Assembly (NCBI GenBank): GCA_963753285.1
Contig: CAVWBT010000005.1
Location: forward strand, 132,564-196,563
Direction: 5' to 3'
DNA: 64,000 nt
Source: an uncultured bacterium
GTDB taxonomy: Bacteria; Actinomycetota; Acidimicrobiia; Spongiisociales; ZC4RG35
In this document: piece by piece, positions 13,303-60,435 of the stretch
How positions within the stretch are numbered: the first letter of the stretch is position 1
How the letters are laid out: each line of letters opens with the position of its first letter
Notes under the pieces: model-generated
Databases searched by the model: none
The model's input: the letters and a program-made list of their open reading frames with translations, nothing else
Told to the model about the DNA's origin: nothing
Translations under genes and position numbers: made by a program

Positions 13303-13318
13303 CAGTGTCGATGCCGGC

Positions 13319-13509: not shown

Positions 13510-13662
13510 ACTGGACGGATGGTCTGCAGTCGCTCTCTGCCGAGGACTTCCGGCCGTACCGGGTCCCTGGGGCCTTCAGTACGATCACCCGGTGATGCCC
13601 CCAAGACCGACATTCGGAATCGGACGGGGCGGTCAGTCCGTCCAGCGTCGAGGAGAAATCTC

Positions 13663-14721: not shown

Positions 14722-14733
14722 GGAGGGTCGAGC

Positions 14734-15882
14734 ATGCGAATTGGAATCCTGACAGGGGGTGGTGACGTCCCCGGACTCAACGCCGCCATCAAGGCGGTGG
14801 TCAACCGTGCGGACGAGCAAGGACACGAGGTGCTCGGCCTGCGCCGCGGCTGGGCCGGTCTGCTGTATGTCGATCCAGACGATCCGGCGACCCTCGAGGA
14901 GTATTCCCAACCGTTGGACCCGGCGTGGGTGCGCACGATCGATCGTTCCGGCGGCACCGTTCTCCACAGCTCGCGGACCCACCCTGGCAAGGTGAAGGCG
15001 TCGGATGTCCCCGACTTCCTCACGCCTCCACCGGACAGCGAGCCCCCGTACGACTTCACCCCGCACGCGATCGAGGTCCTCGAGGCGTACGGCATCGACG
15101 TCCTGATCCCGATCGGCGGCGACGACACGCTGTCGTACGGTTTGCGGCTACACAACGAAGGTGTCCCGGTGATCGCCATCCCCAAGACGATGGACAACGA
15201 CGTCCACGGCACCGACTACTGCATCGGCTTCTCCACCGCGGTGACCCGCGGCGTGCAGTTCGTGCACAACCTGCGGACGAGCACCGGGTCCCACGAGCGC
15301 ATCGCCGTCATCGAGTTGTTCGGCCGGTACAGCGGGGAGACATCGCTGATCACCGCCTATCTGGCCGGTGTCGATCGGGCGGTCATCTCGGAGGTGCCGG
15401 TCGACATCGACAGGCTCGCTGCGTATCTCGTCGCCGATCGCAAGGCGAATCCGAGCCACTACGCGATGGTCACCGTGTCCGAGGGGGCGGTCATCGAGGG
15501 CGGCTCGATGTCGCTCCGTGGGGAGGCCGACGCCTACGGGCATCGCAAGCTGGGTGGTGTCGGCGAGCAGGTCGGCGCAATGCTGAAGGAGTCCACCGGC
15601 ATCAATGTCATCAACCAGACCGTCGGCTACCTCATGCGGTCCGGCAGTCCTGATTCGCTCGACCTGATGGTCGCCAACAACTACGCCGTGATGGCAGCCG
15701 ATCTCGCCATCGAGGGGCAGTCCGGGCGGATGGTGGCACTGCGCGGCGGGACGTACACCAACGTCCCGATCTCGCTGATCGGCGAGGGTGTCAAGCGGGT
15801 CGACGTGGGGGAGATGTACGACTCGGAGGCCTACCGGCCGAAGATCCGACATGTCGGTGGCAAGCCGATGTTCCTCTACTGA
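14734..15882 (+). CDS. Phosphofructokinase paralogue 2 (PPi-type signature GGDDT / PKTMDND)
   Basis: [28 protein letters not shown]; Asp/Lys at the donor-determining positions. Confidence 0.88.
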
Positions 15883-15974
15883 GTAACATCGCTGCCCGTG
15901 CCCCCCGGATCGACACATCTTCGTTTCGTCGCCCTCGGGCGGTCGAACCCGGACCGAATCGCTGAGAGGCTCCG

Positions 15975-16994
15975 ATGAGCGTCATCGGAGTCCTCACGGC
16001 CGGCGGCGACTGCCCCGGCCTCAACGCCGTCATCCGCGGTCTCGTCCTCCGCGCCGACGAGAAGTACGACTCGGAGGTTCTCGGGATCATGAATGGATGG
16101 GAGGGGCTGATGGACGGGGATGTCCATCTGCTCGGCCGCCGCGACGTCGACGACATCCTCGCCAAGGGCGGCACCATCCTCGGGACGTCGCGCAAGGACC
16201 CCTACGTCCACGGTGACGGGTATGCGAGCGTCGCCAGGACGCTCAAGCGCAACGACATCGACAGCCTCGTCGTCATCGGCGGTGATGGCACGCTCCGAAC
16301 CGCCCTCCGGCTGGGCGAGGACGGTGCCAACGTGATCGGGGTCCCGAAGACGATCGACAACGACATCAACGGCACCGACTTCACGTTCGGGTTCGACACG
16401 GCGGTGCAGATCGTCACCGACGCCATCGATCGCCTCACCACCACCGCCGAGGCCCACAACCGGGTGATCCTGGTCGAGGTGATGGGACGGACGAAGGGGT
16501 GGATCGCGACGTACGGCGGTCTGGCGGGTGGTGCGCAGGCGATCTTGATCCCCGAGGTGCCCTACGACATCGAAGAGGTCAGTGCGCTCATTCGACGGCG
16601 GCATCGACGTGGCAAGAACTACAGCGTCGTCGTGGTCGCTGAGGGCATCGAACCGCCCCAGAAGGTCGAACTCCAGAAAGACGCATTCGGTTTCGATCGG
16701 CTCGGCGGCGTCGCCTATCAACTCGCCCCGGTCATCGAACATCTCACCGGTTACGAGACGCGGGTGACGGTGCTCGGCCACCTCCAGCGGGGAGGTACGC
16801 CGACGGCGTTCGACCGGGTGCTGGGGACGCGGTTCGGCGTCTACGCCGCCGATCTGGCCGTTGCGGGCCGGCACGGAACCATGGTTGCGATGCGGGGAGC
16901 CAAGATCGATGCCGTCCCGCTTGCAGAGGGTTGTGCCGAGATCCGGGGCGTCGATCCCGAGCTGTACGACGTCGCCCAGACGTTCTTCGGTTGA
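15975..16994 (+). CDS. Phosphofructokinase paralogue 3 (group III/Streptomyces-like, GGDGT / PKTIDND)
   Basis: VLTAGGDCPGLN, GGTILGTSR, VEVMGR..GWIA, LGHLQRGGTPTAFDR. Confidence 0.9.
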   Translation: MSVIGVLTAGGDCPGLNAVIRGLVLRADEKYDSEVLGIMNGWEGLMDGDVHLLGRRDVDDILAKGGTILGTSRKDPYVHGDGYASVARTLKRNDIDSLVVIGGDGTLRTALRLGEDGANVIGVPKTIDNDINGTDFTFGFDTAVQIVTDAIDRLTTTAEAHNRVILVEVMGRTKGWIATYGGLAGGAQAILIPEVPYDIEEVSALIRRRHRRGKNYSVVVVAEGIEPPQKVELQKDAFGFDRLGGVAYQLAPVIEHLTGYETRVTVLGHLQRGGTPTAFDRVLGTRFGVYAADLAVAGRHGTMVAMRGAKIDAVPLAEGCAEIRGVDPELYDVAQTFFG

Positions 16995-18388: not shown

Positions 18389-19599
18389 TCAGGTGACGGT
18401 GATGGTGAGGCGGGCGTGGGCGGTTCTCAGGGCCTCGATGACGGAGGACGGCTCGGCGGCGCGGGCGAACACGAAACCGAGATACCGGTCGCCGTCGGGG
18501 GTCGGTTCGACGTGTGCGCCGAGGGGGATCGAGATCTCGACCGAGGTCACTCCGGGCACGGACTCGGCAGCTTCGACACCGCCGACTGAGGTCGAGCGTT
18601 CCCGCGGCCGGGACCGGGATCATGAGCACGCCGCTCGCTCCGGGGAGGCGCCTCGATCCGCGCTTTCGCTCGCCGAGTGCCTGTCGCAGCACGAGCGATT
18701 CGAGCGAGTCTCCCATCAAACCGAACGTGAGGCTCCGGCCGCACAACCCACCGATCGTCCGCCCGGCGATCTCGAGCACCACCGGAACACCCTCCTCGAT
18801 GCGGAGCTCGGCGTGGATGGGGCCCTGTGTCAGTCCGAGTGCCCGCGTCGCAACGCTCACCGTGCGTTCCACCTCGGCAACGATCTCGGTCGACAGCGAC
18901 GTCGGCGTCACCAGGATCGTCTCGGGGAAGAACGGACCATTCGGTTGATCCGGCTTGTCGAAGATCGCCAGCGTCTCCAGCCTGCCGTCCCAGAGCAGGC
19001 CCTCCAGCGAGATCTCGGGGCCGCTCACGAACCGTTCCACGAGGATCCGTTCCGTGCCGTCGTCCTCGGCCTGGTGCCTGGCCGCCAGCCTCGCCGCCTC
19101 GCGTGAGCGCGGCCTGGTCGTCTGCTCGCATCACCCCGACACTGGCACTTCGGGTTCTCGGTTTCACCACGACCGGGAAGCCGATCCGGTCGGCGGCGGC
19201 TGCCACCGTGGAGAGTTCGACGACGTCGAACGCCGGCTGGGCGACCTCGGCCTGTGCCAGCAGCCGGCGCATCAACGCCTTGTCGAGCGTTGCGCGGACC
19301 GCGGCCACTGGGCTGGCCGGGAGTCCGATCAACTCCGCCGCCCGTGCTGCGATCTCGACCCCGGCGTCGTCGGCGGCAACGATCGCGTCGATCGGGGTGG
19401 TGGTTGCGATATCGGCGACACGCTCGGCGGAGACGATCGGATCCGAACAATCGATGCGCACCTGACGGTCGGAAGCCAGCAGCGGAAGTTCCGATTCACT
19501 GGCGATCGTGAGTTCGATTCCCAGCGCGCGAGCGGCATCCACGAAGTCGGCTGCGCGGTAGGTCTCGGTCGGCAACACGACCACGACACGGGATCCCAT
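18389..19599 (-). pseudogene. ATP-grasp domain protein interrupted by two +1 frameshifts (~19100 and ~18590); pseudogene or sequencing errors
   Basis: Three consecutive frames rebuild one ATP-grasp protein: LPTETYRAADF...FPVVVKPR, then ILVERFVSGPEISLEG...FDKPD, then VGGVEAAESVPGV...DRYLGFVFAR...*. The span is 1211 nt = 403 codons + 2. Confidence 0.8.
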
Positions 19600-19650: not shown

Positions 19651-20274
19651 ATGTCTGATTCAGAAGCCCGTACCGTCCTGTCCCTCGCACCCGACGCGAT
19701 CGAGATGATCACCACGCTCGCCGAGCAAGAGCCCGGTGACGACGAGTACGGCCTCTACATCGAGGTGACCGGGATCCGAGGTCCCCAGTTCACCTACGAC
19801 CTCAGTTTCATGCCCGTTACGGACGCGACCGATGGCCAGATCGTCGAACGTCACGACAGCCTCGCAGTGATCCTGCGAACCCAAGACGTCGAGAAGCTCG
19901 ACGGCGCCAGCCTCGCCCTCTCCGACGAAGGCCTGGCGATGAACAATCCGAACACGCCGGCAACGCCGACCATGGCTGCTCCGAAGGGTGACCTGACCGG
20001 CCCGCTCGCCGACCAGATCCAGACGGTCCTGGAACAGCAGGTCAATCCGGCGATCGCCTCCCACGGAGGAGGCGCCGAGTTGGTGTCGGTGGACGGCACG
20101 ATCGCTTATCTCAAACTCATGGGCGGCTGCCAGGGCTGCGGGATGGCACAGGTCACCCTGCGCCAAGGCATCGAGCGGATCCTGCTGGAGGCGATCCCGG
20201 ATCTCTCCGGCGTGATCGACGTGACCGACCACGCGTCCGGAACCGACCCCTATTACCAAGCCGCCAAGAAGTAG
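19651..20274 (+). CDS. nfuA: NfuA-type Fe-S biogenesis protein (degenerate A-type domain + NifU C-terminal domain)
   Basis: QVNPAIASHGG, LMGGCQGCGMAQVTLRQGIE, DVTDHASGTDPYY. Confidence 0.9.
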   Translation: MSDSEARTVLSLAPDAIEMITTLAEQEPGDDEYGLYIEVTGIRGPQFTYDLSFMPVTDATDGQIVERHDSLAVILRTQDVEKLDGASLALSDEGLAMNNPNTPATPTMAAPKGDLTGPLADQIQTVLEQQVNPAIASHGGGAELVSVDGTIAYLKLMGGCQGCGMAQVTLRQGIERILLEAIPDLSGVIDVTDHASGTDPYYQAAKK

Positions 20275-25957: not shown

Positions 25958-26932
25958 ATGGGCACACAGATGAACCCCGAGGAATTCGCCACGGCCATCG
26001 AGTCCGCCCGATCGGCGGTCGGCTCGGTCATCGTCGGCCAGCGACAGCTGGTCGACACGGTGCTGATGGCGACGCTGTGCGAAGGGCATGTCCTGTTGGA
26101 GGGAGTGCCCGGATTGGGCAAGACCAAGCTGCTGTCCACCCTGGGCGACGTCCTCGACGTCGCCTTCGGACGCATCCAGTTCACGCCCGACCTGATGCCC
26201 GCCGACATCCTCGGCACCAAGATCCTCGAAGGCTCGGCGTTCGCGTTCCAGCCCGGACCGGTCTTCAACAACCTCGTGCTCGCCGACGAGATCAACCGTG
26301 CCACGCCCAAGACCCAATCGGCCCTGCTCGAAGCGATGCAGGAGCGGCGGGTCACCCTCAGCGGCGAGACGCACGATCTGCCCCGCCCGTTCATGGTGAT
26401 GGCCACCCAGAATCCGATCGAACAGGAAGGCACCTACCCGTTGCCCGAGGCGCAGCTCGATCGATTCATGTTCAAGGAGATCGTGCTCTTTCCTCCGGCG
26501 GACGACATCGTGGAGATCTTGAGACGGACGACCGGCACCAGCGAGGCGACCGCGTCGTCGACCCTCGACGCCACCACACTCTCGCGCATGTCGGAGATGG
26601 TGCGGGACCTGCCGATCGGAACCCATCTCCTGAGGTACGCCGCCGCCCTCGTCGAAGCCACCCATCCCGTGTCGCCGTCAGCCCCCGAGCGCGTGCGGAC
26701 CTACGTCCGCAACGGCGCCTCACCACGTGGCGCACAGGCGATGGTGCTGGCGGGCAAGGCGTCCGCCCTGATGGACGGACGCGTCAACGTGGCGGCCGAG
26801 GATCTCTGGTCGGTCGCCGTCAGGTGTCTCCGGCATCGGCTCGTGCTCGGATACGACGCCATTGCCGACGGGGTGGCCGCCGACGAGTTGATCGCCGACG
26901 TGCTCGAGGCATTGCCGACCCCCGCAGTCTGA
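25958..26932 (+). CDS. moxR: MoxR-family AAA+ ATPase
   Basis: EGVPGLGKT, RIQFTPDLMPADI, LADEINRATPKTQSALLEAMQE, ATQNPIEQEGTYPLPEAQLDRF, GASPRG. Confidence 0.96.
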   Translation: MGTQMNPEEFATAIESARSAVGSVIVGQRQLVDTVLMATLCEGHVLLEGVPGLGKTKLLSTLGDVLDVAFGRIQFTPDLMPADILGTKILEGSAFAFQPGPVFNNLVLADEINRATPKTQSALLEAMQERRVTLSGETHDLPRPFMVMATQNPIEQEGTYPLPEAQLDRFMFKEIVLFPPADDIVEILRRTTGTSEATASSTLDATTLSRMSEMVRDLPIGTHLLRYAAALVEATHPVSPSAPERVRTYVRNGASPRGAQAMVLAGKASALMDGRVNVAAEDLWSVAVRCLRHRLVLGYDAIADGVAADELIADVLEALPTPAV

Positions 26933-27798
26933 TGCTGCTCGATCACGAACTCCGCGGACGTCTCGACCGGCTGTCGCTGATGACGCACGGGCGGATCCGC
27001 TCGGTCTACACCGGGCGACATGCCTCGCGCCATCTGGGTGAGAGCCTCGACTTCGCCGACTACCGCGAGTACGTGCCGGGTGACGACTTCCGGAAGATCG
27101 ACCACCAGCTGTGGGCCAGGCTCGGCCAGGTTCTCGTCAGGCGGTTCGAAGCCGAAGAGGATCTCACCGTCACGGTGTTGATCGATGCCACCGCCTCGAT
27201 GGGCATGTACGGGAAGTTCGACGTGGCACGTCACATCGCCGCGATCGTCTCGTACCTGGCGCTGTCGAGTGGCGACCGCGTCGTTCCGGTGCTGCTCGGC
27301 GGATCGGGACGGCAGGCGACACGCGGTCCGGTCGGCCGGCACCGTTCGGCCTGGCCTGAGATCGAGCGATGGCTCGAGAGTCTCTCGCCTGCAGGTGCGG
27401 TGCCGCTGGCACCCGCGATCCGCGGGGTCGTCGGACCGGTCGCCGGGTCGGGGGCCGTGGTGGTGATCAGCGACCTGCTCGACGCCGAGTGGGAGCGGGC
27501 GCTCGATGGCGCCGGGTTGGGCGTGGGCGGCGTGGTGGCGCATGTCCTCGCTCCCGAGGAGCTCGAGCCCCGGGTCGTCGGTGACCTGCGCCTCGTCGAC
27601 GTCGAGACCGGTGCGCATGTCGAGGCCTCGACTTCGGCTTCGATGCTCGACGCCTACGCCGAAGCAGCGGAGCGCTTCATCGACGGCGTCGCGGGACGAT
27701 CCAGGCGCGGGGGCCTCGATCACGTGCTGGTGCAGGTAGCCGACGGCGCCGGCGAGCGTTTCCTCCGTCGGCTGGTGGAATCGGCGGCGGTCACATGA
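26932..27798 (+). CDS. DUF58 domain protein
   Basis: GESLDFADYREYVPGDDFRKIDH, VLIDATASM, ISDLL; TGATG overlap with moxR. Confidence 0.92.
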   Translation: MLLDHELRGRLDRLSLMTHGRIRSVYTGRHASRHLGESLDFADYREYVPGDDFRKIDHQLWARLGQVLVRRFEAEEDLTVTVLIDATASMGMYGKFDVARHIAAIVSYLALSSGDRVVPVLLGGSGRQATRGPVGRHRSAWPEIERWLESLSPAGAVPLAPAIRGVVGPVAGSGAVVVISDLLDAEWERALDGAGLGVGGVVAHVLAPEELEPRVVGDLRLVDVETGAHVEASTSASMLDAYAEAAERFIDGVAGRSRRGGLDHVLVQVADGAGERFLRRLVESAAVT

Positions 27799-29597
27799 AC
27801 CTGCTCGCCCCCGCCGCGCTCGCCCTGGGATCGTTGGCGATCCCGCTCATCGTGCTCTACATGCTCCGCAGCCGTCGACAACGGCTCGAGGTGTCGAGTG
27901 TGCTGCTGTGGCAGCGCGCCGACGAGAGCGTGACCTCGGCCGTGCCCTGGCGGCGGCTCGAGTTCTCGCCGCTGCTGCTCCTTCAGCTCGCGGTGCTTGC
28001 GCTCCTGGTCCTTGCCCTTGCCAGGCCGTTCTTCTCCCAGGAATCGCTGCTGGGTCCGCACACGGTGCTGGTGATCGACAGTTCGGGTTCCATGGCGGCC
28101 GCAGATCGCTTCGACAAGGCGATCGAACGGGCGAGGCAGATCAGCGCCGACGTCTCCGATGCAAACCTCGTCTCGGTCGTCGAGGCGGGTCCGCGGGCCG
28201 CCGTCGTCGCGACCTTTCTCCGGACCGAAGCGGCCGTCGAGCAGGCCCTGTCGTCGATCGACGTCACCGGAGGGGCGGCCGACCTCGACGGCGCCATCCG
28301 ACTGGGTCGCTCGCTCGCCACCCCCGATCGACCAACGAATCTCGTGCTCCTCACCGACGGCTCGTCGACACCGCTCGCCACCGAGCCGGTCGTCGGCGCC
28401 GATCACATCCGCTTCTCCGACACGGCCGACAATCTGTCGATCAGTGGGTTCTCGGTGGAGCCCTCCGCCGAGGGCGTCGTGCGGTTGTTCGTCAACGTGA
28501 CCAACCACACCGGTATTGCCGCCGATGTCGAGCTGCGGTTACTGGTCAACGGCCTTCCGTCCGGAACGGTCGAATTCGGTGTGCCGCCACTGTCGGATGC
28601 CGCCCGCACCGTTCCGATCGACGCCGGTGCCGGTGATCTCGTCGTCGTGGAGCGAGTCGGCGAGCCCGACGGGCTGGCACTCGACGACCGGGCCTCGATC
28701 GTCGTCGTGGGAGGCGCCGAGCGGACGGTCGGCGTGGTCGGACAGGGATCGCCGTTCCTCGACGTCCTCGTCGACATCGCTCCGGGCTTCGTGTCCGGTG
28801 ACCCGGCCGACGCCGACGTGCTGATCGTCGATGGTGGCCCGCTGCCGGAGATCGACCGCCCGACCTGGCTGATCCGGCCCGAGACGGCCCCGGCCGGAGT
28901 CGAGTTCGACGAGATCGCCACCGGTCTCGCTGCCACGTTCCAGTCTCCCGGTGAGCCCATCCTGGATGCGGTCGACCTGTCGGGGCTGGTCGTTGCGGAG
29001 GCCCAGGTGGCCGAGACGTTCTCGTGGCTGCCGATCGTGCGGGCCGGCGACGTGCCGCTCGTGCTCCTGGGCGAGGTCAACGGTCACCGCGTCGCGTACT
29101 TCACATTCGACATCACCCGTTCGAACCTCCCGGTCCAGGTCGGCTTCCCGATCATGGGAAGTCGGATCCTCGATTGGCTCGGCGGAGCCTCTGCGGGCGC
29201 CACAGACACGGCTCCGGCGGGCACGCCGATCCCCATCTCTCCGCCGGCCGGGGCGACGACCGAGGTGACGAGAGACGGTGTCGTCGTGGCCGAACTGGCC
29301 GACCCCGTTCTCTCGTTCGACGACACCGGCACGCCCGGGGTCTATCGCGTGTCCTACCTGGCCGACGGTGACGAAGTCGCCGGTCCCGTCGCCGTGCGCT
29401 CGTTCGACCGCCAGGAATCGGTGGCCGGATCACGGGACATCGCCGTCGTTGCGGCCGACTCGGCGACGACGGGCGAGGGCTCGATCATCAGAGAGTGGGC
29501 TCCGTCGGTGGTGGCCGCGACGATCGCCATCGTGCTCTTCGAGTGGTGGTTCGCCCATCGCCGGCGCAGGACCCGCACCGTGGAGGTGGCCACGTGA
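27795..29597 (+). CDS. BatA-N + vWA domain membrane protein
   Basis: IPLIVLYML...VSSVLLW (BatA), MIDAS DSSGSM, LLTDG, C-terminal TM. Confidence 0.88.
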   Translation: MNLLAPAALALGSLAIPLIVLYMLRSRRQRLEVSSVLLWQRADESVTSAVPWRRLEFSPLLLLQLAVLALLVLALARPFFSQESLLGPHTVLVIDSSGSMAAADRFDKAIERARQISADVSDANLVSVVEAGPRAAVVATFLRTEAAVEQALSSIDVTGGAADLDGAIRLGRSLATPDRPTNLVLLTDGSSTPLATEPVVGADHIRFSDTADNLSISGFSVEPSAEGVVRLFVNVTNHTGIAADVELRLLVNGLPSGTVEFGVPPLSDAARTVPIDAGAGDLVVVERVGEPDGLALDDRASIVVVGGAERTVGVVGQGSPFLDVLVDIAPGFVSGDPADADVLIVDGGPLPEIDRPTWLIRPETAPAGVEFDEIATGLAATFQSPGEPILDAVDLSGLVVAEAQVAETFSWLPIVRAGDVPLVLLGEVNGHRVAYFTFDITRSNLPVQVGFPIMGSRILDWLGGASAGATDTAPAGTPIPISPPAGATTEVTRDGVVVAELADPVLSFDDTGTPGVYRVSYLADGDEVAGPVAVRSFDRQESVAGSRDIAVVAADSATTGEGSIIREWAPSVVAATIAIVLFEWWFAHRRRRTRTVEVAT

Positions 29598-32281
29598 CGT
29601 TCGTGGTGCCGCTCGTGCTCCTTCTGATCCCTCCCGGTGTCTGGCTCATCTGGAAGATCGGAGCTTCCGGCGTCCGTCGGGTCCCGCTCCGTCAGCATCG
29701 CTGGTCGATCGTCGCACGGTCGATCGCGTTCGCGCTGCTCGTCGCAGCAGTGGCTCAGCCGGCTGCGGTGAGGGCGGTAGAGGACAAGACGGTCTTCTTC
29801 CTGCTCGATCGATCCGACTCGATCGGCGCCGACGCCCGTGCCGTGCAGGAGCGCATCGTCAACGATGCACTGGGAGAAGCGGGACCCACAGACCGGGTCG
29901 GCGTCGGCGTCTTCGGTGCCGGTCTCGAAGTGGACACGGCGCTGACCATCGGCTTGGACTCGATCAGCATCGGCGCCGTGTCCGAGGGCGCCGCGACCGA
30001 CGTGGAGGCCTCGCTGCGATCGGCCGCTTCGCTGCTCCCATCGGAGGGCTCTCGCCGGATCGTCGTGCTGACGGACCTCGTGGAGACATCGGGTGATGCC
30101 CGTGCGGCGGCCCGCGAGTTGGCGGCCGACGGCGTGGCCGTGGATGTCATCTCGTTGTCGACTGCTCGCAGCGCCGATGTGCTGGTCGAGTCCGTGAGGC
30201 TTCCCGCGACAGCCAGGGTCGGGGACACCGTCACGGCCCGAATCGCGGTTCGATCGAACCAGGCGGGCCAGGCGACGCTCGACATCGACGCCGGCGGAGA
30301 CACGCTGCGCCAGACCGTCGAACTCGAGGGCGGGTCTCAGGTCATCGAGGTCGAGGTTCCCGTGACGGACCCGGGCGCGCTCTCGGTCGAGGTGACGGTC
30401 GACGCGGACTTCGACACCCGGGCGGAGAACAACTCCGCTCAGGGCGTGTCTCGGGTGTTGGGCCCGGCGACGGTGGCGGTCGTCGAAGCGGTGGACGGAG
30501 AGGCGGAGGCACTGACGGCGGCGCTTGAAGCAAGCGGCCTGGTGGTCGACGAACTGGGGGCGGTCCCCGACGAGGGTCGCCTGCTCGGCTACGACGCCGT
30601 GGTCCTGGTGAACGTCCCCCAGCCCGACAACGCCTCCGCTCAGCGGCTCGCCTCGTATGTCGAGGATCTGGGCCGCGGCCTCGTGGTGGTCGGAGGAGAC
30701 CAGGCGTACGGGCTGGGCGACTACCACGAGACGCCGCTCGAAGCCGTGCTACCCGTGTCGTCGAATCCCGATGATCTCATCAGGCGTCAGCCCGTCGCGG
30801 AGGTGCTGGTGATCGACACGTCCGGTTCGATGGGCCGATGCCACTGCAACAACGGCGTGTTCGACGAGACGGGCCCCAACAAGACGGACATCTCGAGGGC
30901 GGGCGCCACACTCGCCATCGATGCGCTCGACGACACCGACACGGTCGGGGTGTTGTCGTTCTCGAGTGGATATGACTGGGTGATCCCGCTGGGTGTGAAG
31001 CCGGATCCGGTGACCGTCGACGAGGCCCTGGGCGGTCTCGTCCCCGAAGGCGACACCGAGATCGGCGTCGCCCTGGAAGCCGCGCTCGACGAGCTCGAGA
31101 CGGTGCCGAACGCGTTGCGACACATCGTGTTGTTCACCGACGGTTGGGACCCGAACGACGCCAACCTCGTCCCTATCTCGAGACGGATCGCAGACGCCGG
31201 CGTCACGCTCTCGGTGCTGGGAACTGGTGAGGGCCCGGGAACGACGCTGCAACGCATGGCCGACGTCGGGGGCGGGCGGTTCTATCCGGGGACGGATCTC
31301 GCGAGCGTTCCCGAGATCTTCGTCGAGGAGACCCTCACGGTGGCGCGGAACCTCGCAACCGAAGGCTCGTTCTTTCCCGCTCTGCGGGTTCCTTCACCGG
31401 CAACCGATCTGCTCACGTCGACTCCGCCTCTGTTCGGATACGTCCTGACCAAGGCCAAGGCGACCGCGTCGGTGAATCTGGAGATCGGACAAGCCGATCC
31501 GCTCCTGGCAGGTTGGCAGCGCGGGTTGGGGCGCGTCACTGCCTGGACGTCGGATGCCACGTCGCGCTGGTCGACCGGCTGGCTGGACTGGGACGGCTAC
31601 GTCGACTTCTGGGGGACGGTCGTCAGGGAAGTGCTTCCGGCAGGAAGGGAGCGGCCTCCGGAGGTCTTCGTGGAAGATGGACGCGTGCGCGTGGTCGCCC
31701 CTGCATCCGGGCTCGGCGACGCCGCGACGGCGATCGCCCGCGTCCGGCTCCCGGACGGCGAACTGCGAGCGATTCCGATGGTCAGAACCTCGGAGTCGGA
31801 GTTCACCGCCGAGACGGCGGCGCCCATTCCCGGCGCGTACTGGACGGCCGTGACCATCGAAGACGGGTCCGGTGGGTCGATCACGTCCGGATCCGGCGCC
31901 GTGTCGAGCTATGAGGAGGAGTTTGCGTTCCGGGAACCGGACCCGACGCTCGGAAACGACCTCACGGGGATCACCGGCGGCCGGCTCGAACCGTCGGTGA
32001 CGGCGCTCTTCGACTCGGCTCCGGCGCTCGGCCGCTTGGAGCAGCCGTTGTGGCCCATCCTCGTCCTGGTCGGGCTGCTGGTGTTCCTTCTGGACGTGGC
32101 GCTGCGACGTCTGGTCTTCGTCGAGGGTGACGCCGAGGAGTGGAAGCGCGGGATGACGTCGGAGACGCGACGTGAGCGGGTGCGCGTGGCTGATGTCGAG
32201 GCCAGGAGATCCGAGGCCGGAGATCGAGAGCTCGCCTCCGAGTCCGAGACCCTCCAACGCCTGATGCGTCGCAAACGCTGA
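29594..32281 (+). CDS. Membrane protein with two vWA domains and a GATase-like (DUF1355-type) domain
   Basis: LLDRSDSI and VIDTSGSM MIDAS motifs; LVVVGGDQAYGLGDY..TPLE..LPV; LFTDG; WQRGLGRVTAWTSD. Confidence 0.85.
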   Translation: MTFVVPLVLLLIPPGVWLIWKIGASGVRRVPLRQHRWSIVARSIAFALLVAAVAQPAAVRAVEDKTVFFLLDRSDSIGADARAVQERIVNDALGEAGPTDRVGVGVFGAGLEVDTALTIGLDSISIGAVSEGAATDVEASLRSAASLLPSEGSRRIVVLTDLVETSGDARAAARELAADGVAVDVISLSTARSADVLVESVRLPATARVGDTVTARIAVRSNQAGQATLDIDAGGDTLRQTVELEGGSQVIEVEVPVTDPGALSVEVTVDADFDTRAENNSAQGVSRVLGPATVAVVEAVDGEAEALTAALEASGLVVDELGAVPDEGRLLGYDAVVLVNVPQPDNASAQRLASYVEDLGRGLVVVGGDQAYGLGDYHETPLEAVLPVSSNPDDLIRRQPVAEVLVIDTSGSMGRCHCNNGVFDETGPNKTDISRAGATLAIDALDDTDTVGVLSFSSGYDWVIPLGVKPDPVTVDEALGGLVPEGDTEIGVALEAALDELETVPNALRHIVLFTDGWDPNDANLVPISRRIADAGVTLSVLGTGEGPGTTLQRMADVGGGRFYPGTDLASVPEIFVEETLTVARNLATEGSFFPALRVPSPATDLLTSTPPLFGYVLTKAKATASVNLEIGQADPLLAGWQRGLGRVTAWTSDATSRWSTGWLDWDGYVDFWGTVVREVLPAGRERPPEVFVEDGRVRVVAPASGLGDAATAIARVRLPDGELRAIPMVRTSESEFTAETAAPIPGAYWTAVTIEDGSGGSITSGSGAVSSYEEEFAFREPDPTLGNDLTGITGGRLEPSVTALFDSAPALGRLEQPLWPILVLVGLLVFLLDVALRRLVFVEGDAEEWKRGMTSETRRERVRVADVEARRSEAGDRELASESETLQRLMRRKR

Positions 32282-53802: not shown

Positions 53803-54693
53803 TCAGGTCGCCCGGGCCTTCTTCGCGTATCGGGTGGTCCAGCGCTCGATCTCGGCGAGGACCCAGTCGGCGTTCTCCATCTGAGGGACGTGGCCGACGC
53901 CCTCGAGGCGACGGAAGGTCCAGTCGGGCCGAAGCCTCTCGAGCGCGTCGATCGCCTCCGGTGCGACGAGGACGTCACGATCTCCGCTCAGGACGAGCGC
54001 CTCGTGGCTGATCGAGGCGATCATCCGTCGAAACCGCCAGGGAGGGATGAACATGTGTCGCAATGACGCAGTCGACTCGACGAGAGCGCGCGTCGCCCAG
54101 GGCATGGCGGCACGGCGGCTCGCCATCGCGAAGGAGGCCGTTCGGGCCCGTTCCGGCAGCGTCGAAGCGTCTGCTGCGACGATCTCGAGGCGTGTCTGTG
54201 CGAGCTGCTGAGGTGTGAGGAGCCGGCGGTACGCACCCGCCACGAGGTTTCCCAGCCCGGGGAACGATTGCGCCGCGAGGCGAGCGGCCACACCGTTGTC
54301 CGGGTGGTGGCGCAGCGACGCGATCGGGCTCGCAGGTGCGATCAGGATCAGGTCGGCGACGAGACCGGGCCGGGTGGCAGCCACCATCTCGGCGAGCAGC
54401 CCTCCCATGGAGTTGCCCACGAGAACCGCCGGCCGATCGAGCGTCTCGAGCAGTTCGACGAGTGTCGACGCGAGACTGTCGAGATCGTGGCGGTCGATCG
54501 GTGGCGAGTATCCGTACCCGGGGAGGTCGATGGCGATGGTGCGCCCCCGGTCGGCGAGCGAATCGAACACCTCGATCCAGTTGGTGTGGTTGCCGCCCAG
54601 TCCGTGTACGAGCAGATGTGGTGTACCGGTGCCTCCCGAGTCGACCACGTGGAGTTCCGTGGATGGCAATTGAACGAAGGAGCTTTCCCGCAT
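53803..54693 (-). CDS. Alpha/beta-fold hydrolase
   Basis: VHGLGG, DLPGYG, GNSMGG, SGDRD, GHVPQME. Confidence 0.92.
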   Translation of the reverse strand: MRESSFVQLPSTELHVVDSGGTGTPHLLVHGLGGNHTNWIEVFDSLADRGRTIAIDLPGYGYSPPIDRHDLDSLASTLVELLETLDRPAVLVGNSMGGLLAEMVAATRPGLVADLILIAPASPIASLRHHPDNGVAARLAAQSFPGLGNLVAGAYRRLLTPQQLAQTRLEIVAADASTLPERARTASFAMASRRAAMPWATRALVESTASLRHMFIPPWRFRRMIASISHEALVLSGDRDVLVAPEAIDALERLRPDWTFRRLEGVGHVPQMENADWVLAEIERWTTRYAKKARAT

Positions 54694-54746
54694 CGTCGCA
54701 ACGATAGGCGGACGCGGCCGTACAGCCCTGCGGTGCGAATACCCTG

Positions 54747-56126
54747 ATGTCCGTGAGGATCCTGCTCGTCTCGACCTATGAACTCGGTCACCAGCCGCTG
54801 CACGTCGCATCGCCGGCTGCACGGCTGCTCGGTGCCGGCCACCGTGTCGAGACGATCGACCTCGCAATCGACTCGTTCGAGAACTCGTCGCTCGAGGGCA
54901 TCGACGCCGTGGCCATCTCGGTCCCGATGCACACTGCGATGCGTCTCGCCCAGCGAACCGTGGAGCGGGTGAGAGCCGCCGCTCCCGAGCTCCCCGTCGC
55001 CGTCTACGGGCTCTATGCCGCCATGGGGACGATCGAGGGGGTCGATCGTGTGATCGTCGGGGAGTACGAGGAGCAGCTGGTCTCGTGGGTGGAGTCGCTC
55101 GGCTCAGGTCAGGCCAGCAGCGGCGCCGTGACGGTCGACATCGGTAGGCAGCGTTTTCTGGTTCCCCACCGGGCAGGACTGCCGGCGCTGGAGTCGTACG
55201 CACATCTCAGCGTGGGAGACGACCATCGGCGGGTCGGCTACGTCGAGGCGAGTCACGGCTGTCGGCATCGGTGCAGGCACTGCCCGTTGCCGGTGGTCTA
55301 CGACGGGCGCTTTCGGATCGTCGAGTCGGAAACCGTGCTCGACGACATCGGCAATCTCGTGTCATCGGGAGCGCGTCACATCACGTTCGGGGACCCCGAC
55401 TTCTTCAACGGTGCGGCGCATGCCATGAAGGTGCTTCGAGCGGCGAACGACAGGCACCCGGAGCTGACGTACGACGTGACGATCAAGGTGGAGCATCTGC
55501 TCGGGCACCGTCGGATGCTCGCCGAACTGGCGGGGCGCAACGTGCTGTTCGTCACCTCGGCGTTCGAGTCGACCAACGACGAGGTCCTCACACTGCTCGA
55601 CAAGGGGCACACGAGGCGAGACATGCACACTGCGCTCGAGCTGTGCCGCGAGGTCGGTCTGGACATCCATCCATCGTGGCTGCCGTTCACTCCCTGGACG
55701 GAGCCGGGCGACCTCGCTGCGATCTTCTCGTTCATCGACGAGTTCGATCTGTTCGAGGTCACCGAGCCGGTCCAGCTCGCCATCAGGCTGCTGATTCCCC
55801 GCGGCTCGCTCGTCCTGGACATCCCGGGCGCATGGGATCTGGTCGGCGACTACGACGAGGAGGCGCTGTCGTACGTGTGGAGATCGCGAGACCCGTCAGT
55901 GGACGAACTGCAGGCGAGACTCGCTGCTCGAGCCGAACGGCACGCCGCCGGAGACGGCTCACTGACCGAGACACTCACGGACATGTGGATGATGGCTCTC
56001 GAGACGGCGGGGGCGGGTGACGTCACTCCGCAGATCCCGGCCGGAGCGATCACCGGTCGCCCGCGGCTCACCGAGCCCTGGTTCTGTTGAGCGGAGCCCA
56101 CCGAGCGCCAGTTGGGCGCTCTCTGA
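54747..56126 (+). CDS. Radical SAM selenoprotein, CUAEP/CCAEP-tail family (ArsL-like); Sec at TGA 56088-56090
   Basis: CRHRCRHC (CX3CX2C) and an N-terminal B12-binding-like domain. Read-through gives ...EPWFC-U-AEPTERQLGAL*, and a SECIS-like hairpin follows the TGA. Confidence 0.85.
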
Positions 56127-56139
56127 GCGAGTAGGGCTC
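56094..56139 (+). promoter_or_regulatory. Bacterial SECIS-like hairpin
   Basis: Upper stem GAGCGCC(56103-09)/GGCGCTC(56115-21) with loop AGTTG, starting 12 nt after the UGA; lower stem GAGCCC(56094-99)/GGGCTC(56134-39). Confidence 0.7.
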
Positions 56140-56143
56140 GCCG

Positions 56144-56192
56144 TTCCAGGTTCCAGGTTCCAGGTTCCAGGTTCCACGTTCCACGCTCCACG
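56144..56192. repeat. Heptamer tandem array (TTCCAGG x4, TTCCACG x2, CTCCACG)
   Basis: Seven consecutive 7-bp units directly after the selenoprotein gene. Confidence 0.9.
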
Positions 56193-56274
56193 TCTGCCTA
56201 GCACGGTGGTCGTGTGGTGTAGACGGCCCGAAGGGGCTTGACACCCTGCGCTTCGCCATGCCAGAGTAGCTAGA

Positions 56275-56291
56275 ACTTTGCGGAACAAAGT
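56275..56291. promoter_or_regulatory. Inverted repeat ACTTTG-N5-CAAAGT, probable operator of the downstream winged-HTH regulator
   Basis: Perfect 6-5-6 palindrome just before the RBS of 56306. Confidence 0.55.
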
Positions 56292-56305
56292 AGAGGGGCG
56301 CACCG

Positions 56306-56869
56306 ATGCAGACCGAAGATCCGCTCGAGATACTCGCCGACGTCGAGGCGTTGCGGCACCGGACCTCGACCGCACTCAACGCCGACGGGTGGCAGTGGAT
56401 GACGGTCTGGAGTCTCGTCGCCTTCGGTGCGGGGCTGACCGCGCTGGTCGACGCGCTCGAGGGCGTCTCCGGGTTCTATTGGATGCTGGCGGTCCCGGTC
56501 GCGCTGGGTGTGACCGCCTTGCTCGAGCGGCGGTCGAAGGAGCAGCGAGCAGTCAGGCGCGACAGTCGCCCCTACATCACGGTCGGGGCGGCGATGCTGG
56601 TGGTCAATCTCGTGGCTTCGTTCATGTTCGAGGCCGAAGCGACCGTCATCGTCATCTGGGTCGTCATCGGGCTCGGCTTCGCCGCGTTCGCCCACTTCGA
56701 TGGGGATCGGCCCACCACGGTGATGTACGTGGGTGCCGCGCTGCTGGCCGTCGGATTGGGCATCTTCGCTGCGGACCCGTTCGATGCCTACGCGGCGACC
56801 TCCATGCTCTTCGCCGGGCTTCTCGCCGGCTCGGCCGTCCAGGTGTACTCGAAGTACCGCGCCGGATGA
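56306..56869 (+). CDS. Membrane hypothetical protein (6 TM)
   Basis: Hydrophobic helices; coupled to the regulator gene. Confidence 0.75.
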   Translation: MQTEDPLEILADVEALRHRTSTALNADGWQWMTVWSLVAFGAGLTALVDALEGVSGFYWMLAVPVALGVTALLERRSKEQRAVRRDSRPYITVGAAMLVVNLVASFMFEAEATVIVIWVVIGLGFAAFAHFDGDRPTTVMYVGAALLAVGLGIFAADPFDAYAATSMLFAGLLAGSAVQVYSKYRAG

Positions 56870-57174
56870 CTCATCCCAGTGGACTCCTCGATGATGTGAT
56901 CCACCAGCGGGTGCGGCTCGGCATCATGGCCGTGCTCGCGGAGGCAGACGAGGCCGAGTTCACGTTCCTGAAGGACCAACTGGACCTGACCGACGGCAAC
57001 CTCAACCGTCACCTCCAGGTGCTCGAAGACGCCGGCTACATCGCACGAAGACGGGGCAGATCGGCGGGACGCCCGCGGACCTGGATCCGTGCAACGAGAG
57101 CGGGCCAGACGGCGCTGGCCGACCATCTCGAAACCCTGCAACGCCTCATCGACCAGACGAAAGGAACGCCATGA
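56866..57174 (+). CDS. Winged-HTH transcriptional regulator (MarR/ArsR-like)
   Basis: LDDVIHQRVRLGIMAVL..EAEFTFLK..LDLTDGNLNRHLQVLEDAGYI. Confidence 0.9.
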   Translation: MTHPSGLLDDVIHQRVRLGIMAVLAEADEAEFTFLKDQLDLTDGNLNRHLQVLEDAGYIARRRGRSAGRPRTWIRATRAGQTALADHLETLQRLIDQTKGTP

Positions 57175-58115
57175 CCAACGTCCTCCTAGTCGAGGACCTC
57201 GAACACAGCTTCGATGACCTCCTCGCAGTCGGCGGTGTCTCGTTCTTCATCGAGACCGGCGAGACATATGGCCTGCTCGGTCCGAACGGCGCGGGAAAGA
57301 CGACGACCATCTCGATGATCTCGGGCCTGCTCGAAGCGGATCGCGGTTCGGTTCAAGTTGCAGGCCAGCGGATGACGACGACCTCGACCGCGGCGAAACG
57401 GGCGATCGGGCTGGTCCCACAGGACCTCGCCATCTACCCGGACCTGACCGCCAAGGAGAACCTGGCCTTCTTCGGATCGCTCTACGGCATGCGTGGATCG
57501 GAGCTCGGCCGACGCATCGACGAAGTCCTCGAGATGGTCGGTCTCCGAGACCGTGCCGACGACAAGGCGGAGGAGTACTCCGGCGGAATGAAGCGGCGCC
57601 TGAACATCGGGGTCGGGCTCCTGCATGGCCCTCAGCTGCTGATCCTGGACGAACCCACGGTCGGAGTCGATCCGCAATCGCGCAACGCGATTCTCGAGAG
57701 TGTCGAGGCACTCTCCACCGAGGGCATGTCGGTGCTCTACACGACGCACTACATGGAGGAGGCCGAACGGTTGTGCGACCGGGTCGGGATCATCGACAAC
57801 GGGTTGCTCGTGGCGGAGGGCGCACGTCGCGATCTGGTCGACAGCATCGGACAGAACGACACGGTGCATGTGACCGGAACGGGCGATCTCGGTGCAGCGA
57901 GCGAAGCTCTGCGTTCGACCGACGGAGTCGTCCAGGCAGCCGAGGCGCACGGGGTGATCACCGTGATGGTCGACCGGGCGGCCAGCAGACTGCCGTCGGT
58001 CCTCGCTGCGGTCGGCGCTGCCGGAGTGTCGGTGACTGCGGTCGATGTGAAGGAGCCGAACCTCGAAGCCGTGTTCCTTCACATGACCGGCAAGGCCCTG
58101 AGGGACGAGGCATGA
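57171..58115 (+). CDS. ABC exporter ATP-binding protein
   Basis: GPNGAGKTT, YSGGMKRRLNI, LILDEPTVGVDPQSR, YTTHYMEEA. Confidence 0.96.
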   Translation: MTNVLLVEDLEHSFDDLLAVGGVSFFIETGETYGLLGPNGAGKTTTISMISGLLEADRGSVQVAGQRMTTTSTAAKRAIGLVPQDLAIYPDLTAKENLAFFGSLYGMRGSELGRRIDEVLEMVGLRDRADDKAEEYSGGMKRRLNIGVGLLHGPQLLILDEPTVGVDPQSRNAILESVEALSTEGMSVLYTTHYMEEAERLCDRVGIIDNGLLVAEGARRDLVDSIGQNDTVHVTGTGDLGAASEALRSTDGVVQAAEAHGVITVMVDRAASRLPSVLAAVGAAGVSVTAVDVKEPNLEAVFLHMTGKALRDEA

Positions 58116-59287
58116 GACAGATGTTGCGGATCGTCGCGAAGGACCTGAAGCAGCGGGTGCGTGACCGGTCGGTGTTCATCGTCGGGATCATCGCTCCGGC
58201 CATGCTCGCACTCATCTTCAGCTTTGCGTTCGGTGATGCGCTCGACCCGAGCGGCGGCGGTTTCCAGGCGAGCTACGGGTTCGTGGACCTCGACGGCGGC
58301 GATGCCGCCGCAGGCCTCGGCGAGGTGCTGGCCGGTATCGAAGGCGCTCAGTTCTCCATCGAGACGTACGAGTCGGTGGCGGCGGTCGAGGCAGCCATCG
58401 ACGACGACGAGTTGTCGGCTGCGTTCGTCGTCCCTGAAGGCTTCAGCGAGTCGATCGGCTCGGGTACGGCAGTGCTCGAGGTCGTGGGAAACGTCGACGC
58501 GCCGACCGGGGCCGGGATCGCAGCCGCCATCGCCGAGGGATACGCCGACGCCGTCGATCGTGTCACCCTGACGGTTGCGGGTTCGATCGCCGCCGGAGCA
58601 GACCCGGCCTCGCTCGACGAGGTGATTGCGACGGCATCGACCGTCGAGCCGCTCGCATCCATCGGAGCCATCACGACTGGGGTCCGGCAGATGGACGGGC
58701 CGACGTACCTGATGGCGGGCATGGCAGTCTTCTTCTTGTTCTTCACGGTTCAGTTCGGGGTTGCATCGCTGCTCGAGGAGAAGCGCATCGGCACGTGGGG
58801 CCGCCTGCTGGCTGCTCCGGTTTCCCGCTCGGAGGCGATCGGTGCCAAGGTGCTGGTCAGCTTCCTGCTGGGGATCGTCTCGATGGCCGTCCTCATGATC
58901 GGCGCATCGATCGGACTGGGGGCCGACTGGGGCGATCCCGTCTCGGTTTCGGTGCTGGTGATTCTCGGCGTGCTGGCAGCGACCGGCGTGATGGCACTCG
59001 TCTCGGCGATCGCGAAGACCGTGGAGGCGGCCGGAAACATCCAGGCGATCATCGCCGTCGCGCTCGGCATGCTCGGCGGAACGTTCGTCCAGATCAGCCA
59101 GGACGGTGGCCTGCTGTCGAGGCTCTCGCTGATCACGCCGCATCACTGGTTCATTCAGGGCCTGAACGACCTCGGTGGTGGGGGAAGCATCGGTGACATC
59201 GTTCCAAGCATCGTCGGGATCGGTCTGTTCGCCGCAGTGACCGGCGGCCTGGCCGTGTGGGCGTTCTCTCGACAGGAGACGGTATGA
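58112..59287 (+). CDS. ABC-2 permease with extracellular domain
   Basis: KDLKQRVRDR, LLEEKRIGTWGRLLAAP, TPHHWFIQGL. Confidence 0.9.
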   Translation: MRQMLRIVAKDLKQRVRDRSVFIVGIIAPAMLALIFSFAFGDALDPSGGGFQASYGFVDLDGGDAAAGLGEVLAGIEGAQFSIETYESVAAVEAAIDDDELSAAFVVPEGFSESIGSGTAVLEVVGNVDAPTGAGIAAAIAEGYADAVDRVTLTVAGSIAAGADPASLDEVIATASTVEPLASIGAITTGVRQMDGPTYLMAGMAVFFLFFTVQFGVASLLEEKRIGTWGRLLAAPVSRSEAIGAKVLVSFLLGIVSMAVLMIGASIGLGADWGDPVSVSVLVILGVLAATGVMALVSAIAKTVEAAGNIQAIIAVALGMLGGTFVQISQDGGLLSRLSLITPHHWFIQGLNDLGGGGSIGDIVPSIVGIGLFAAVTGGLAVWAFSRQETV

Positions 59288-60435
59288 CGATTCTCTCGAT
59301 CGCTCGCAACGCGCTCCGGCGACTGTTCCGTGACCGGTCCAATGTCTTCTTCGTCTTCGTGCTCCCGATCGCCCTGGTCCTGCTCATCGGTGCGCAGTTC
59401 GGTGGAGGCTTCACCCCGACCGTCGGGGTGATGGCACCAGCCGATGATGCGCTGGCAGACCGGCTGGTGTCAGAGCTGGCCGACCTGTACCAGATCCGGG
59501 ACTACGAGACTCGCGACGACCTGGTGCTCGCAGTCGAACGCGGATGGGTGCAGGCGGGGATCGAGGTCCCGACCGGGTTCAGCGGTTCGGTGGCCGCCGG
59601 CGATCGTCCAGAGATCGGCTACCTCGCACAACCCGACTCGAGCGGCCAAGGCGTGCAGACGGCGGTCTCCGCGACCCTGGAACGCATTCTCGCTCCGATC
59701 ACTGCCGCGTCCGTCGTGGCCGAGACGCAGGGGCTGTCGCTGGAGCAGGCCGAGGCGATCATCGGGGAGGTGGCAGGCTCCGTGCCTCCGGTCGAAGTCG
59801 AGACCCGCACGACCGGCGAAGCGCTCTTCGTGGACCTCGGCCAGTTCGACCTCGGGGCGTCGAGTCAGCTCGTGCTGTTCATGTTCCTGACTGGACTGAC
59901 AGGGTCTGCAGCGCTCATCCAGAGTCGGCAGCTCGGTGTGACGCGTCGGATGCTGTCGTCTCCGGCGTCCACACGCACCATCCTCGCTGGGGAGGCGCTC
60001 GGTCGGCTCGGGGTGACCTTGTTCCAGGGGATCTACATCGTCGCAGTGACCCTGATCGTCTTTCGCGTCGATTGGGGAAGCCCGTTCGGGGCGGCAGCCA
60101 TCATGCTGGCGTTCGGCTTGGTCGCAGCCGCTGCGGCGATGCTGCTGGGTTCGGTGTTCTCCAACGATCAGCAGGCCGGGGGGGTCGCGGTGGTGCTCGG
60201 GCTGGGGCTGGCGGCTCTCGGTGGCTCGATGGTGCCCGTCGAGTTCTTCTCGTCCACGATGCAGTCGATCTCCATGGTCACACCGCACTACTGGGCGAAC
60301 AGCGCCTTCGCCGAGCTGGTCAGGCGCGACGGTGGCGTTGCCGACATCCTCCCTCAGTTGGGCGTCCTGGCTGGGTACGCGATCGTGTTGTTGGCGCTGG
60401 CCACCTGGCGGCTGCAGCGGGTCCTCACCCGCTGA
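59284..60435 (+). CDS. ABC-2 permease with extracellular domain
   Basis: RRLFRDR, SRQLGVTRRMLSSP, LGGSMVP, TPHYWAN. Confidence 0.9.
   Translation: MTILSIARNALRRLFRDRSNVFFVFVLPIALVLLIGAQFGGGFTPTVGVMAPADDALADRLVSELADLYQIRDYETRDDLVLAVERGWVQAGIEVPTGFSGSVAAGDRPEIGYLAQPDSSGQGVQTAVSATLERILAPITAASVVAETQGLSLEQAEAIIGEVAGSVPPVEVETRTTGEALFVDLGQFDLGASSQLVLFMFLTGLTGSAALIQSRQLGVTRRMLSSPASTRTILAGEALGRLGVTLFQGIYIVAVTLIVFRVDWGSPFGAAAIMLAFGLVAAAAAMLLGSVFSNDQQAGGVAVVLGLGLAALGGSMVPVEFFSSTMQSISMVTPHYWANSAFAELVRRDGGVADILPQLGVLAGYAIVLLALATWRLQRVLTR

Follow-up and report, generated by a model that had tools for sequence, protein, structure and literature searches.

A predicted selenoprotein of the CUAEP/CCAEP-tail radical SAM family in Acidimicrobiia-like DNA and its relationship to ArsL

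We describe a gene found in a 64,000-nucleotide stretch of DNA from an uncultured bacterium (assembly GCA_963753285.1, contig CAVWBT010000005.1, positions 132,564 to 196,563 of the forward strand), hereafter called the window. The gene encodes a radical S-adenosylmethionine (SAM) protein predicted to end in a tail with vicinal cysteine and selenocysteine (Sec) residues. The closest characterised relative is ArsL, described in papers from 2024-2026. According to these papers, ArsL is the sole canonical-fold radical SAM enzyme known to form a 3-amino-3-carboxypropyl (ACP) radical and a carbon-arsenic bond. It splits SAM into methylthioadenosine (MTA) and the ACP radical, while its C-terminal CCXXC motif binds As(III). 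These papers also report that ArsL deprived of the tail still cleaves SAM and loses product formation, that the tail binds no second cluster, and that a variant with only the vicinal CC is most active on a methylarsenical substrate. Dph2 of diphthamide synthesis, the other enzyme known to generate an ACP radical by means of SAM and a [4Fe-4S] cluster, is a model for the chemistry, although it has an unrelated fold without CX3CX2C and acts on a protein histidine. The CUAEP/CCAEP family, to which our gene belongs, is mentioned in the literature searched only in the Haft 2022 preprint (bioRxiv 10.1101/2022.07.06.499078), which calls it uncharacterised and suggests a connection with heavy metals. 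SAO-system proteins, HgcA and some MerT also have the rare vicinal Cys-Sec pair; their folds differ, and contact of the pair with a heavy metal was proposed in the same preprint.

The open reading frame (ORF) called mechanically spans 54747-56090, encodes 447 amino acids and ends in ...LTEPWFC-TGA on translation, the codons up to the Sec site being GAG CCC TGG TTC TGT TGA. Past this TGA the frame continues as GCG GAG CCC ACC GAG CGC CAG TTG GGC GCT CTC TGA, which reads U-AEPTERQLGAL-stop. Ordinary gene calling misses the last twelve residues, the selenocysteine first among them. A preliminary description, made from the DNA letters, had noted the TGA-ended ORF with its in-frame continuation, the CX3CX2C motif and a 7-bp hairpin with a G in its loop 12 nt after the UGA. 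All are present, and the features of the gene are as follows.

54747-56127, + strand: full predicted selenoprotein coding sequence of the CUAEP/CCAEP-tail radical SAM family, 459 residues including Sec448, plus stop.
55260-55283, + strand: CX3CX2C motif (C172, C176 and C179), predicted ligands of the radical SAM [4Fe-4S] cluster.
56085-56099, + strand: tail motif Cys447-Sec448-Ala-Glu-Pro, the putative Sec codon UGA being 56088-56090.
56103-56121, + strand: predicted selenocysteine insertion sequence (SECIS) hairpin with a 7-bp stem (GAGCGCC/GGCGCUC) and a 5-nt, G-containing loop (AGUUG), 12 nt past the UGA.
56125-56127, + strand: second TGA, the predicted true stop of the selenoprotein (sequence and translation).

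For scoring, Cys was substituted for Sec and the 11 tail residues were added; the protein then reached 535.1 bits (cutoff 500) against NCBIfam NF040546, 'CUAEP/CCAEP-tail radical SAM (seleno)protein', residues 5-457 covering positions 1-467 of the 468 in the profile. Its database relatives bear the same NCBI name. The family assignment of the preliminary description, to a named group with no established reaction, is therefore correct. Pfam Radical_SAM (PF04055) matched with 52.1 bits, and the N-terminal domain gave 29.1 bits with B12-binding (PF02310), just under the threshold of 32.1. A search of 1.84 billion representatives, made with no profile, found 357 sequences with E values no higher than 1e-30, and 1275 when the limit was relaxed to 1e-10, the 357 family representatives being counted at 50% identity.

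Relatives were sampled by scanning one genome per species, which gave 80 loci with 44-78% identity to the window protein, distributed among Acidimicrobiia, Thermoleophilia, Chloroflexota, Acidobacteriota, Methylomirabilales and others. The codon census covers 79 genome loci, one being cut at the contig end. After the tail cysteine, 40 loci have a TGA codon and 38 a cysteine codon (TGC or TGT); TAA and TAG do not occur at this position. In the alignment of 79 sequences, window included, 41 have U at position 448 and 38 have C, and C447 is invariant. The triplet (A/S/T)EP follows the Sec/Cys codon in frame in every relative. Both signs proposed beforehand for a genuine selenoprotein, cysteine at the U position of homologues and AEP conserved past the TGA, were thus observed. 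The tail consensus is P..L.E.W[FY]-C-[UC]-[AST]-E-P...Q. The CX3CX2C motif lies within the Pfam Radical_SAM match and is invariant in 79/79 sequences; the only other invariant positions of this kind are C447 and U/C448, and no auxiliary-cluster Cys motif was found in the alignment.

The SECIS of the window is a perfect 7-bp helix. Folding of the single sequence (76-nt region, DNA with 66% G+C) gave z = -1.0, and 35 of 200 shuffles folded equally well. Since this is not significant, covariation among relatives was used, and it is the comparison with relatives that carries weight. Among the 39 distinct TGA-form sequences the register of the hairpin is constant and 93.8% of the cells are paired. 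Double-sided changes occur at six of the seven stem pairs, and compensatory cells number 40, against 10.2 in shuffles (0/500 reach the observed value); the pairing signal collapses when the 3' strand is slid. Loop positions 1-3 are A-G-U in most TGA forms. Cys forms are without the hairpin, with the exception of an apparent remnant in locus L041. This Cys form retains a weakened copy, GAGAACC AGUUU GGUCCUC, which suggests a recent Sec-to-Cys replacement. Rfam gave no match, either for the whole window at the gathering threshold or for 55900-56400 at E up to 5, and no curated RNA family covers the SECIS of this family.

The comparative evidence shows the UGA at 56088-56090 as a predicted Sec codon, which the SECIS at 56103-56121 would help to read, with translation ending at 56125-56127. 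We regard Sec decoding as settled for the family on these comparative grounds. It is very likely in the window gene, given the alternation of UGA with Cys codons, the frame conserved past the UGA, the compensatory changes in the SECIS and the perfect helix. Together with the family assignment, it is the part of our explanation that we hold with high confidence. The 'hidden selenoprotein' of the preliminary description is correct in that the UGA hides a Sec gene, as alternation, frame and covariation indicate, but it is not new, as the family and its Cys-Sec motif had already been named. The window gene shares with NF040546 the C-[U/C]-A-E-P tail, the CX3CX2C motif and the Sec/Cys alternation, and it reads as an ordinary member with no difference at the protein level. 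Only its context, described below, is less common.

Genes for Sec machinery were also sought. No selA, selB, selD or tRNA-Sec was found in the 64-kb window by Pfam on ~45 ORFs, tblastn and ARAGORN, and ARAGORN detected no tRNA-Sec in the 40 TGA-form loci. With E. coli SelA, SelB and SelD as tblastn queries on the window and all loci, only selA fragments were found (L035, L039 and L079). In two of these loci a selA homolog lies ~9.3 kb downstream of a TGA-form radical SAM gene (L039 20704-21360 and L079 15066-15725); both homologs are cut off where the locus ends, and their presence counts in favour of Sec decoding.

The second-best NCBIfam family is NF040542 (ArsL), with 268.2 bits over residues 5-396; the third family has 47 bits. 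The window protein is 33% identical over 407 residues to a protein with an RCCLKC tail from a Bacillus cereus plasmid. The aligned motifs are LLVS.[YF]E.G.QP, AISVP, GC.H.C..C, H[IL]TF.D.DFFN, PELTYD.T, F[IV]TSA.E, PF.PWT and W..D..[IV]DEL. ArsL and the family have in common a Rossmann-like domain at the N terminus, the radical SAM core, and a C-terminal tail that is rich in Cys and contains a vicinal pair. We know of no report of ArsL as a selenoprotein. The parallel with ArsL drawn in the preliminary description therefore stands as far as the closest characterised relative is concerned, but the protein itself is not classified as an ArsL. The NF040542 score is far under the cutoff of 450. 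The C-U-A-E-P tail offers two soft ligands and lacks the RCCLKC/CCXXC motif, while ArsL has three ligands in a tail that is ~25 residues closer to the core. Furthermore, no arsM, arsN1, ACR3, arsQ, MIP (aquaporin) or CobW-like gene was found near the family in ~100 loci or in the window, whereas the ArsL-family genes found on plasmids sit in ars islands. Score, tail and context together place the CUAEP/CCAEP family beside ArsL, as a sister family whose tail differs in having two ligands. Arsenic is disfavoured by the gene context.

The AlphaFold2 (AF2) model of a Cys-form member has a predicted local distance difference test score (pLDDT) of 91.8, which drops to ~62-64 in the last ~20 residues; this low confidence fits a mobile arm. 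The solved folds closest to the model are AprD4 (template modelling (TM) score 0.68), OxsB (0.63) and TsrM (0.55), these three at 14-19% identity, and also MgmA. AprD4, OxsB and TsrM have an N-terminal cobalamin-type domain; the model resembles the cobalamin-free AprD4 as well as the cobalamin enzymes OxsB and TsrM, but none of them has a Cys-Sec tail. A sequence search of the PDB found no structure of ArsL or of the CUAEP/CCAEP family.

Gene context was counted by clustering of neighbours and then by a stricter tblastn census. The commonest neighbours are an ATP-grasp protein of the L-amino-acid-ligase type and an NfuA-like Fe-S carrier. Of the 65 loci with enough flank, 29 have the ATP-grasp as the next gene upstream, on the same strand, in TGA and Cys forms alike. 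The NfuA-like gene is no more than 3 kb away in 29 of 52 loci. Searches that started from the ligase found the radical SAM gene directly downstream in eight further loci, several with the order DUF169-ligase-radical SAM-Nfu. The partner ATP-grasp has the architecture ATPgrasp_N + ATP-grasp_4 + LAL_C2 (orthologues L017 and L081), and its best solved relative is BL00235 (3VOT, E 7.7e-34), which makes Met-Gly and Met-Met. DUF169 proteins are present in 14 loci. A SaoD/DsrE-family gene (NF040913) is just downstream in 9 loci, and in a tenth a further copy lies ~2 kb upstream. A divergent alpha/beta hydrolase is found in 13 Acidimicrobiia-type loci, in the same arrangement as in the window.

Two fusion proteins were detected. 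P0234 joins the ligase to the radical SAM protein, and P0130, of metagenomic origin, combines a CCAEP-tail radical SAM protein with a domain of the alkylmercury lyase MerB (PF03243, E 1.2e-14); there is one instance of each. P0263, considered as a second ligase-radical SAM fusion, was rejected, being mostly an out-of-frame, low-complexity ORF. Two cultured bacteria carry the gene. In Nonomuraea sp. NPDC050783 (L056 8126-16519) a GCS2-type ligase stands before the Cys form, and after it come an aminotransferase and then DUF169 between two MerB-like genes. Thermomicrobium roseum DSM 5159 has a TGA form, with the SECIS in register, which adjoins an aminotransferase and an MFS transporter. This gene is on the megaplasmid (NC_011961.1 ~796519-798027; L104 8935-10443), reads AEPLEDPSG... 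for 23 codons past the TGA, and has the hairpin loop CGUCG. T. roseum thus appears to carry the Sec form, mis-annotated in RefSeq as ending at the TGA. It was not among the matches listed in a SelA search of the plasmid collection, a result that is uninformative for its megaplasmid.

Some ArsL clusters also hold an ATP-grasp of the L-amino-acid-ligase type. Such genes were found in ArsL-family plasmid clusters of Bacillus, Alicyclobacillus, Priestia and Pantoea (L105 1447-2670, L106 2439-3671, L107 2741-3964 and L109 7461-8777), and their products have the same architecture and the same best solved relative, 3VOT, as the ligases of our family. The ligase of the ArsL clusters usually adjoins a small CMD-family gene. 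The Pseudomonas arsQ-arsL-arsM cluster (L108) is without a ligase-type ATP-grasp. Since identity between the two sets of ligases is just 25%, the pairing is taken as a functional parallel and not as proof of common descent.

The counterparts of both common neighbours are present in the window, at a distance of 35 kb from the radical SAM gene.

18389-19599, - strand: L-amino-acid-ligase-type ATP-grasp, orthologue of the usual upstream partner (tblastn and DNA alignment).
19651-20274, + strand: NfuA-like Fe-S carrier, divergent from the ATP-grasp, intact, with a NifU domain and a partial NfuA match, 88-89% identical to L081 and L082.

The ATP-grasp is 76% identical in protein sequence to its orthologues in L081 and L082, and in comparison with these intact copies it is broken into three pieces in three frames by two +1 insertions, at ~19097-19114 and ~18593. 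Some 30 other genes of the window are collinear with relatives in one frame, with no other frameshift, which speaks for a genuine pseudogene, or else for an error of assembly at this site, and against a general sequence error. The ATP-grasp is probably non-functional here. The preliminary description had suggested that it may take part in the pathway; the gene is indeed the orthologue of the ligase found directly upstream of the radical SAM gene elsewhere, but the two frameshifts speak against a working copy. In the closest metagenome-assembled genome (MAG), Ww195, the radical SAM gene and the ligase are likewise on separate contigs (L001 and L083). Either the radical SAM protein works without the ligase or the pathway is decaying in the window genome.

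A mechanism based on transfer of the ACP group is the best supported of those considered, and we give it about an even chance of being correct as a whole. The [4Fe-4S] cluster on C172, C176 and C179 would cleave SAM reductively, as in the sister enzyme ArsL, most likely at the C-gamma-S bond, to give methylthioadenosine and an ACP radical or iron-bound ACP. This cleavage site is proposed by homology. The acceptor of the ACP group may then be a soft heteroatom, whether metalloid, chalcogen or metal, which Cys447-Sec448 would bind on the flexible tail; the tail as substrate holder is suggested by the invariant C447 and U/C448, by the data on the ArsL tail and by the mobile-arm confidence of the AF2 model. 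The product would be an amino acid of the 2-amino-4-(X)-butanoate type. This is consistent with the ligase pairing, the ligase-radical SAM fusion, the ligases in ArsL clusters and the adjacent aminotransferases of T. roseum and Nonomuraea. In many genomes the upstream ATP-grasp would join the product to another amino acid, and in some the product may go to an aminotransferase, a GCS2-type ligase or a MerB-like lyase. The NfuA-like protein could supply or repair the cluster. In the window genome only the radical SAM step looks intact. We infer where SAM is cleaved, what the tail does, what kind of product arises and which class of element takes part.

A link to organometallic compounds is suggested by the radical SAM-MerB fusion, the MerB-like genes of Nonomuraea, the SaoD/DsrE neighbours in 10 loci and the CU motif, which SAO-system proteins and HgcA also have. 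Proteins of the SaoD/DsrE family and MerB-like proteins adjoin or fuse with some family members. The carbon-metalloid chemistry proposed in the preliminary description is backed indirectly, by the ligase pairing in both sister families and by the fusion or adjacency of MerB, and we keep it as a suggestion. A more specific form of it is tentative: in place of arsenic the Cys-Sec pair may hold another element, with Se, Te, Sb and thiophilic metals as candidates, to which the ACP group would be bonded, giving a novel organo-element amino acid which the ligase would convert to a dipeptide and whose bond MerB-like lyases would undo in some clusters. Such a pathway would be widespread in Actinomycetota, Chloroflexota and Acidobacteriota of soil and sediment.

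Several observations weigh against these proposals. The literature searched contains no biochemistry on any member of the CUAEP/CCAEP family, and the best solved fold, AprD4, is a canonical 5'-deoxyadenosyl enzyme. The distance from ArsL in profile score, tail ligands and ars context, given above, also counts here, as does the lack of Sec machinery in the window with regard to Sec decoding. The ligase adjoins the radical SAM gene in fewer than half of the loci, and in the window it is broken while the radical SAM gene is intact. The low identity between the ligases of the two sister families may reflect independent recruitment. Finally, the fusions P0234 and P0130 are single sequences on single contigs and could be artefacts of assembly or gene calling.

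The main rival to ACP transfer is that the Cys-Sec tail is a redox arm of the selenenylsulfide/selenolthiol kind, which would serve canonical 5'-deoxyadenosyl chemistry by supplying electrons or a hydrogen atom or by resolving an intermediate, with no metalloid held. We consider it possible, though doubtful. A vicinal Cys-Sec pair can form a redox-active selenenylsulfide, as in thioredoxin reductase, where the Cys-Sec of GCUG stands near the penultimate position on a flexible C-terminal arm and may serve as a precedent by analogy; that enzyme has a flavoprotein fold, its tail shuttles electrons, and there is no homology. The closest solved folds, AprD4 followed by OxsB, MgmA and TsrM, are canonical or cobalamin-type, the tail contains just two redox-capable residues with no third conserved Cys, and no conserved metal or arsenic resistance genes are found nearby. 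However, ArsL, the sole characterised close relative, cuts SAM at the other C-S bond, and the protein scores 268 bits with it against 47 with canonical families. Neighbours that act on free amino acids (ligase, aminotransferase and GCS2) fit an ACP-derived amino acid, and the fusion and adjacency of MerB point to carbon-metal bonds.

It is unlikely that the enzyme is functionally an ArsL, placing As(III) or methylarsenite on the Cys-Sec tail to make hydroxyarsinothricin or arsinothricin. The 33% identity extends over the entire core, ligase-type ATP-grasps also occur in ArsL-family clusters, and a vicinal Cys pair alone is reported to sustain ArsL activity on a methylarsenical substrate. However, the NF040542 score and the missing three-ligand motif separate the two proteins, the ~100 members examined have no arsM, arsN1, arsQ, ACR3 or aquaporin gene nearby, and the family lies among housekeeping genes such as aceE, plsB and dtd.

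Slightly less probable still is a role of the tail Sec/Cys as acceptor or donor, in which its own selenol or thiol would be modified by the ACP or 5'-deoxyadenosyl radical, or sulfur or selenium from a persulfide or perselenide would be inserted into the product, the enzyme being partly sacrificial or reloaded. NfuA repairs clusters consumed by sulfur-inserting radical SAM enzymes, and an NfuA-like carrier is a frequent neighbour; the SaoD/DsrE family, of sulfur-relay type, is a neighbour in 10 loci. However, the proteins have no auxiliary-cluster Cys motif, and the ArsL tail is reported to bind no second cluster. Homocysteine-like products made from SAM would also be metabolically circular. 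A reading of the TGA at 56088 as a normal stop codon, with a protein that ends in ...EPWFC and a downstream similarity and hairpin that are incidental or part of a terminator, is highly improbable: the unremarkable single-sequence fold, the empty Rfam search, the window without Sec machinery and the RefSeq end of the T. roseum gene agree with it, but 40 TGA against 38 Cys codons with no TAA or TAG, (A/S/T)EP in frame in all cases, a hairpin kept by compensatory changes in TGA forms only and the '(seleno)protein' of the NCBI family name contradict it.

The chemistry of the family can be tested, and the gene does not represent a new kind of system. A sister family of ArsL would show the reach of ACP and carbon-heteroatom chemistry beyond arsenic. 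This family is large and extends over several phyla; its members often have Sec in the tail proposed to hold the substrate, and their partner is an amino-acid ligase. New comparative clues come from the ligases that accompany both sister families, from the fusions with MerB and with the ligase, and from the cultured carriers. T. roseum DSM 5159, with the TGA form, and Nonomuraea sp. NPDC050783, with the Cys form, make the chemistry approachable by experiment. For annotation, the finding means that gene calls in this family routinely stop short at the Sec codon, RefSeq included, as T. roseum illustrates.

The window is Acidimicrobiia-like DNA, its closest relatives are MAGs, and its AceE is 93% identical to that of L001. 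The radical SAM gene is flanked by aceE and the alpha/beta hydrolase on one side, and by a membrane protein, a winged-helix regulator and an ABC-2 exporter on the other. In L001, the closest relative, the extension past the TGA is equal in length and the stop is identical. The neighbouring features are the following.

53803-54693, - strand: alpha/beta-fold hydrolase (Pfam Abhydrolase_1), divergent, with ~53 bp between the start codons; aligned with L001.
56306-60435, + strand: downstream genes conserved with L001 (Pfam and synteny), which may or may not be linked to the enzyme, namely
56306-56869, + strand: membrane protein.
About 56866-57174, + strand: winged-helix regulator.
57171-58115, + strand: ABC ATPase.
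58112-59287 and 59257-60435, + strand: two ABC-2 permeases.

The ABC ATPase is just downstream of the radical SAM gene in several Acidimicrobiia loci. A scan of 54400-56500 for promoters and terminators found nothing. Pfam on ~45 ORFs of the window detected housekeeping families only, with no SAO or hgc genes. A heptanucleotide tandem repeat, GTTCCAG, which drifts to GTTCCAC and GCTCCAC, lies 15 nt past the predicted true stop of the selenoprotein, in the intergenic region before 56306, with ~7 copies (56142-56193). Elsewhere in the window, an ORF with an S-layer homology (SLH) domain runs from the window start (12-1670). Three phosphofructokinase-family paralogues are found in a row at 12181-16994, with a DeoC/LacD-type aldolase between the first and the second, an arrangement conserved in L081-L083. 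A MoxR AAA ATPase followed by BatA/VWA-domain proteins, a cluster of the Bat-like 'aerotolerance' type, is present at 25958-32281.

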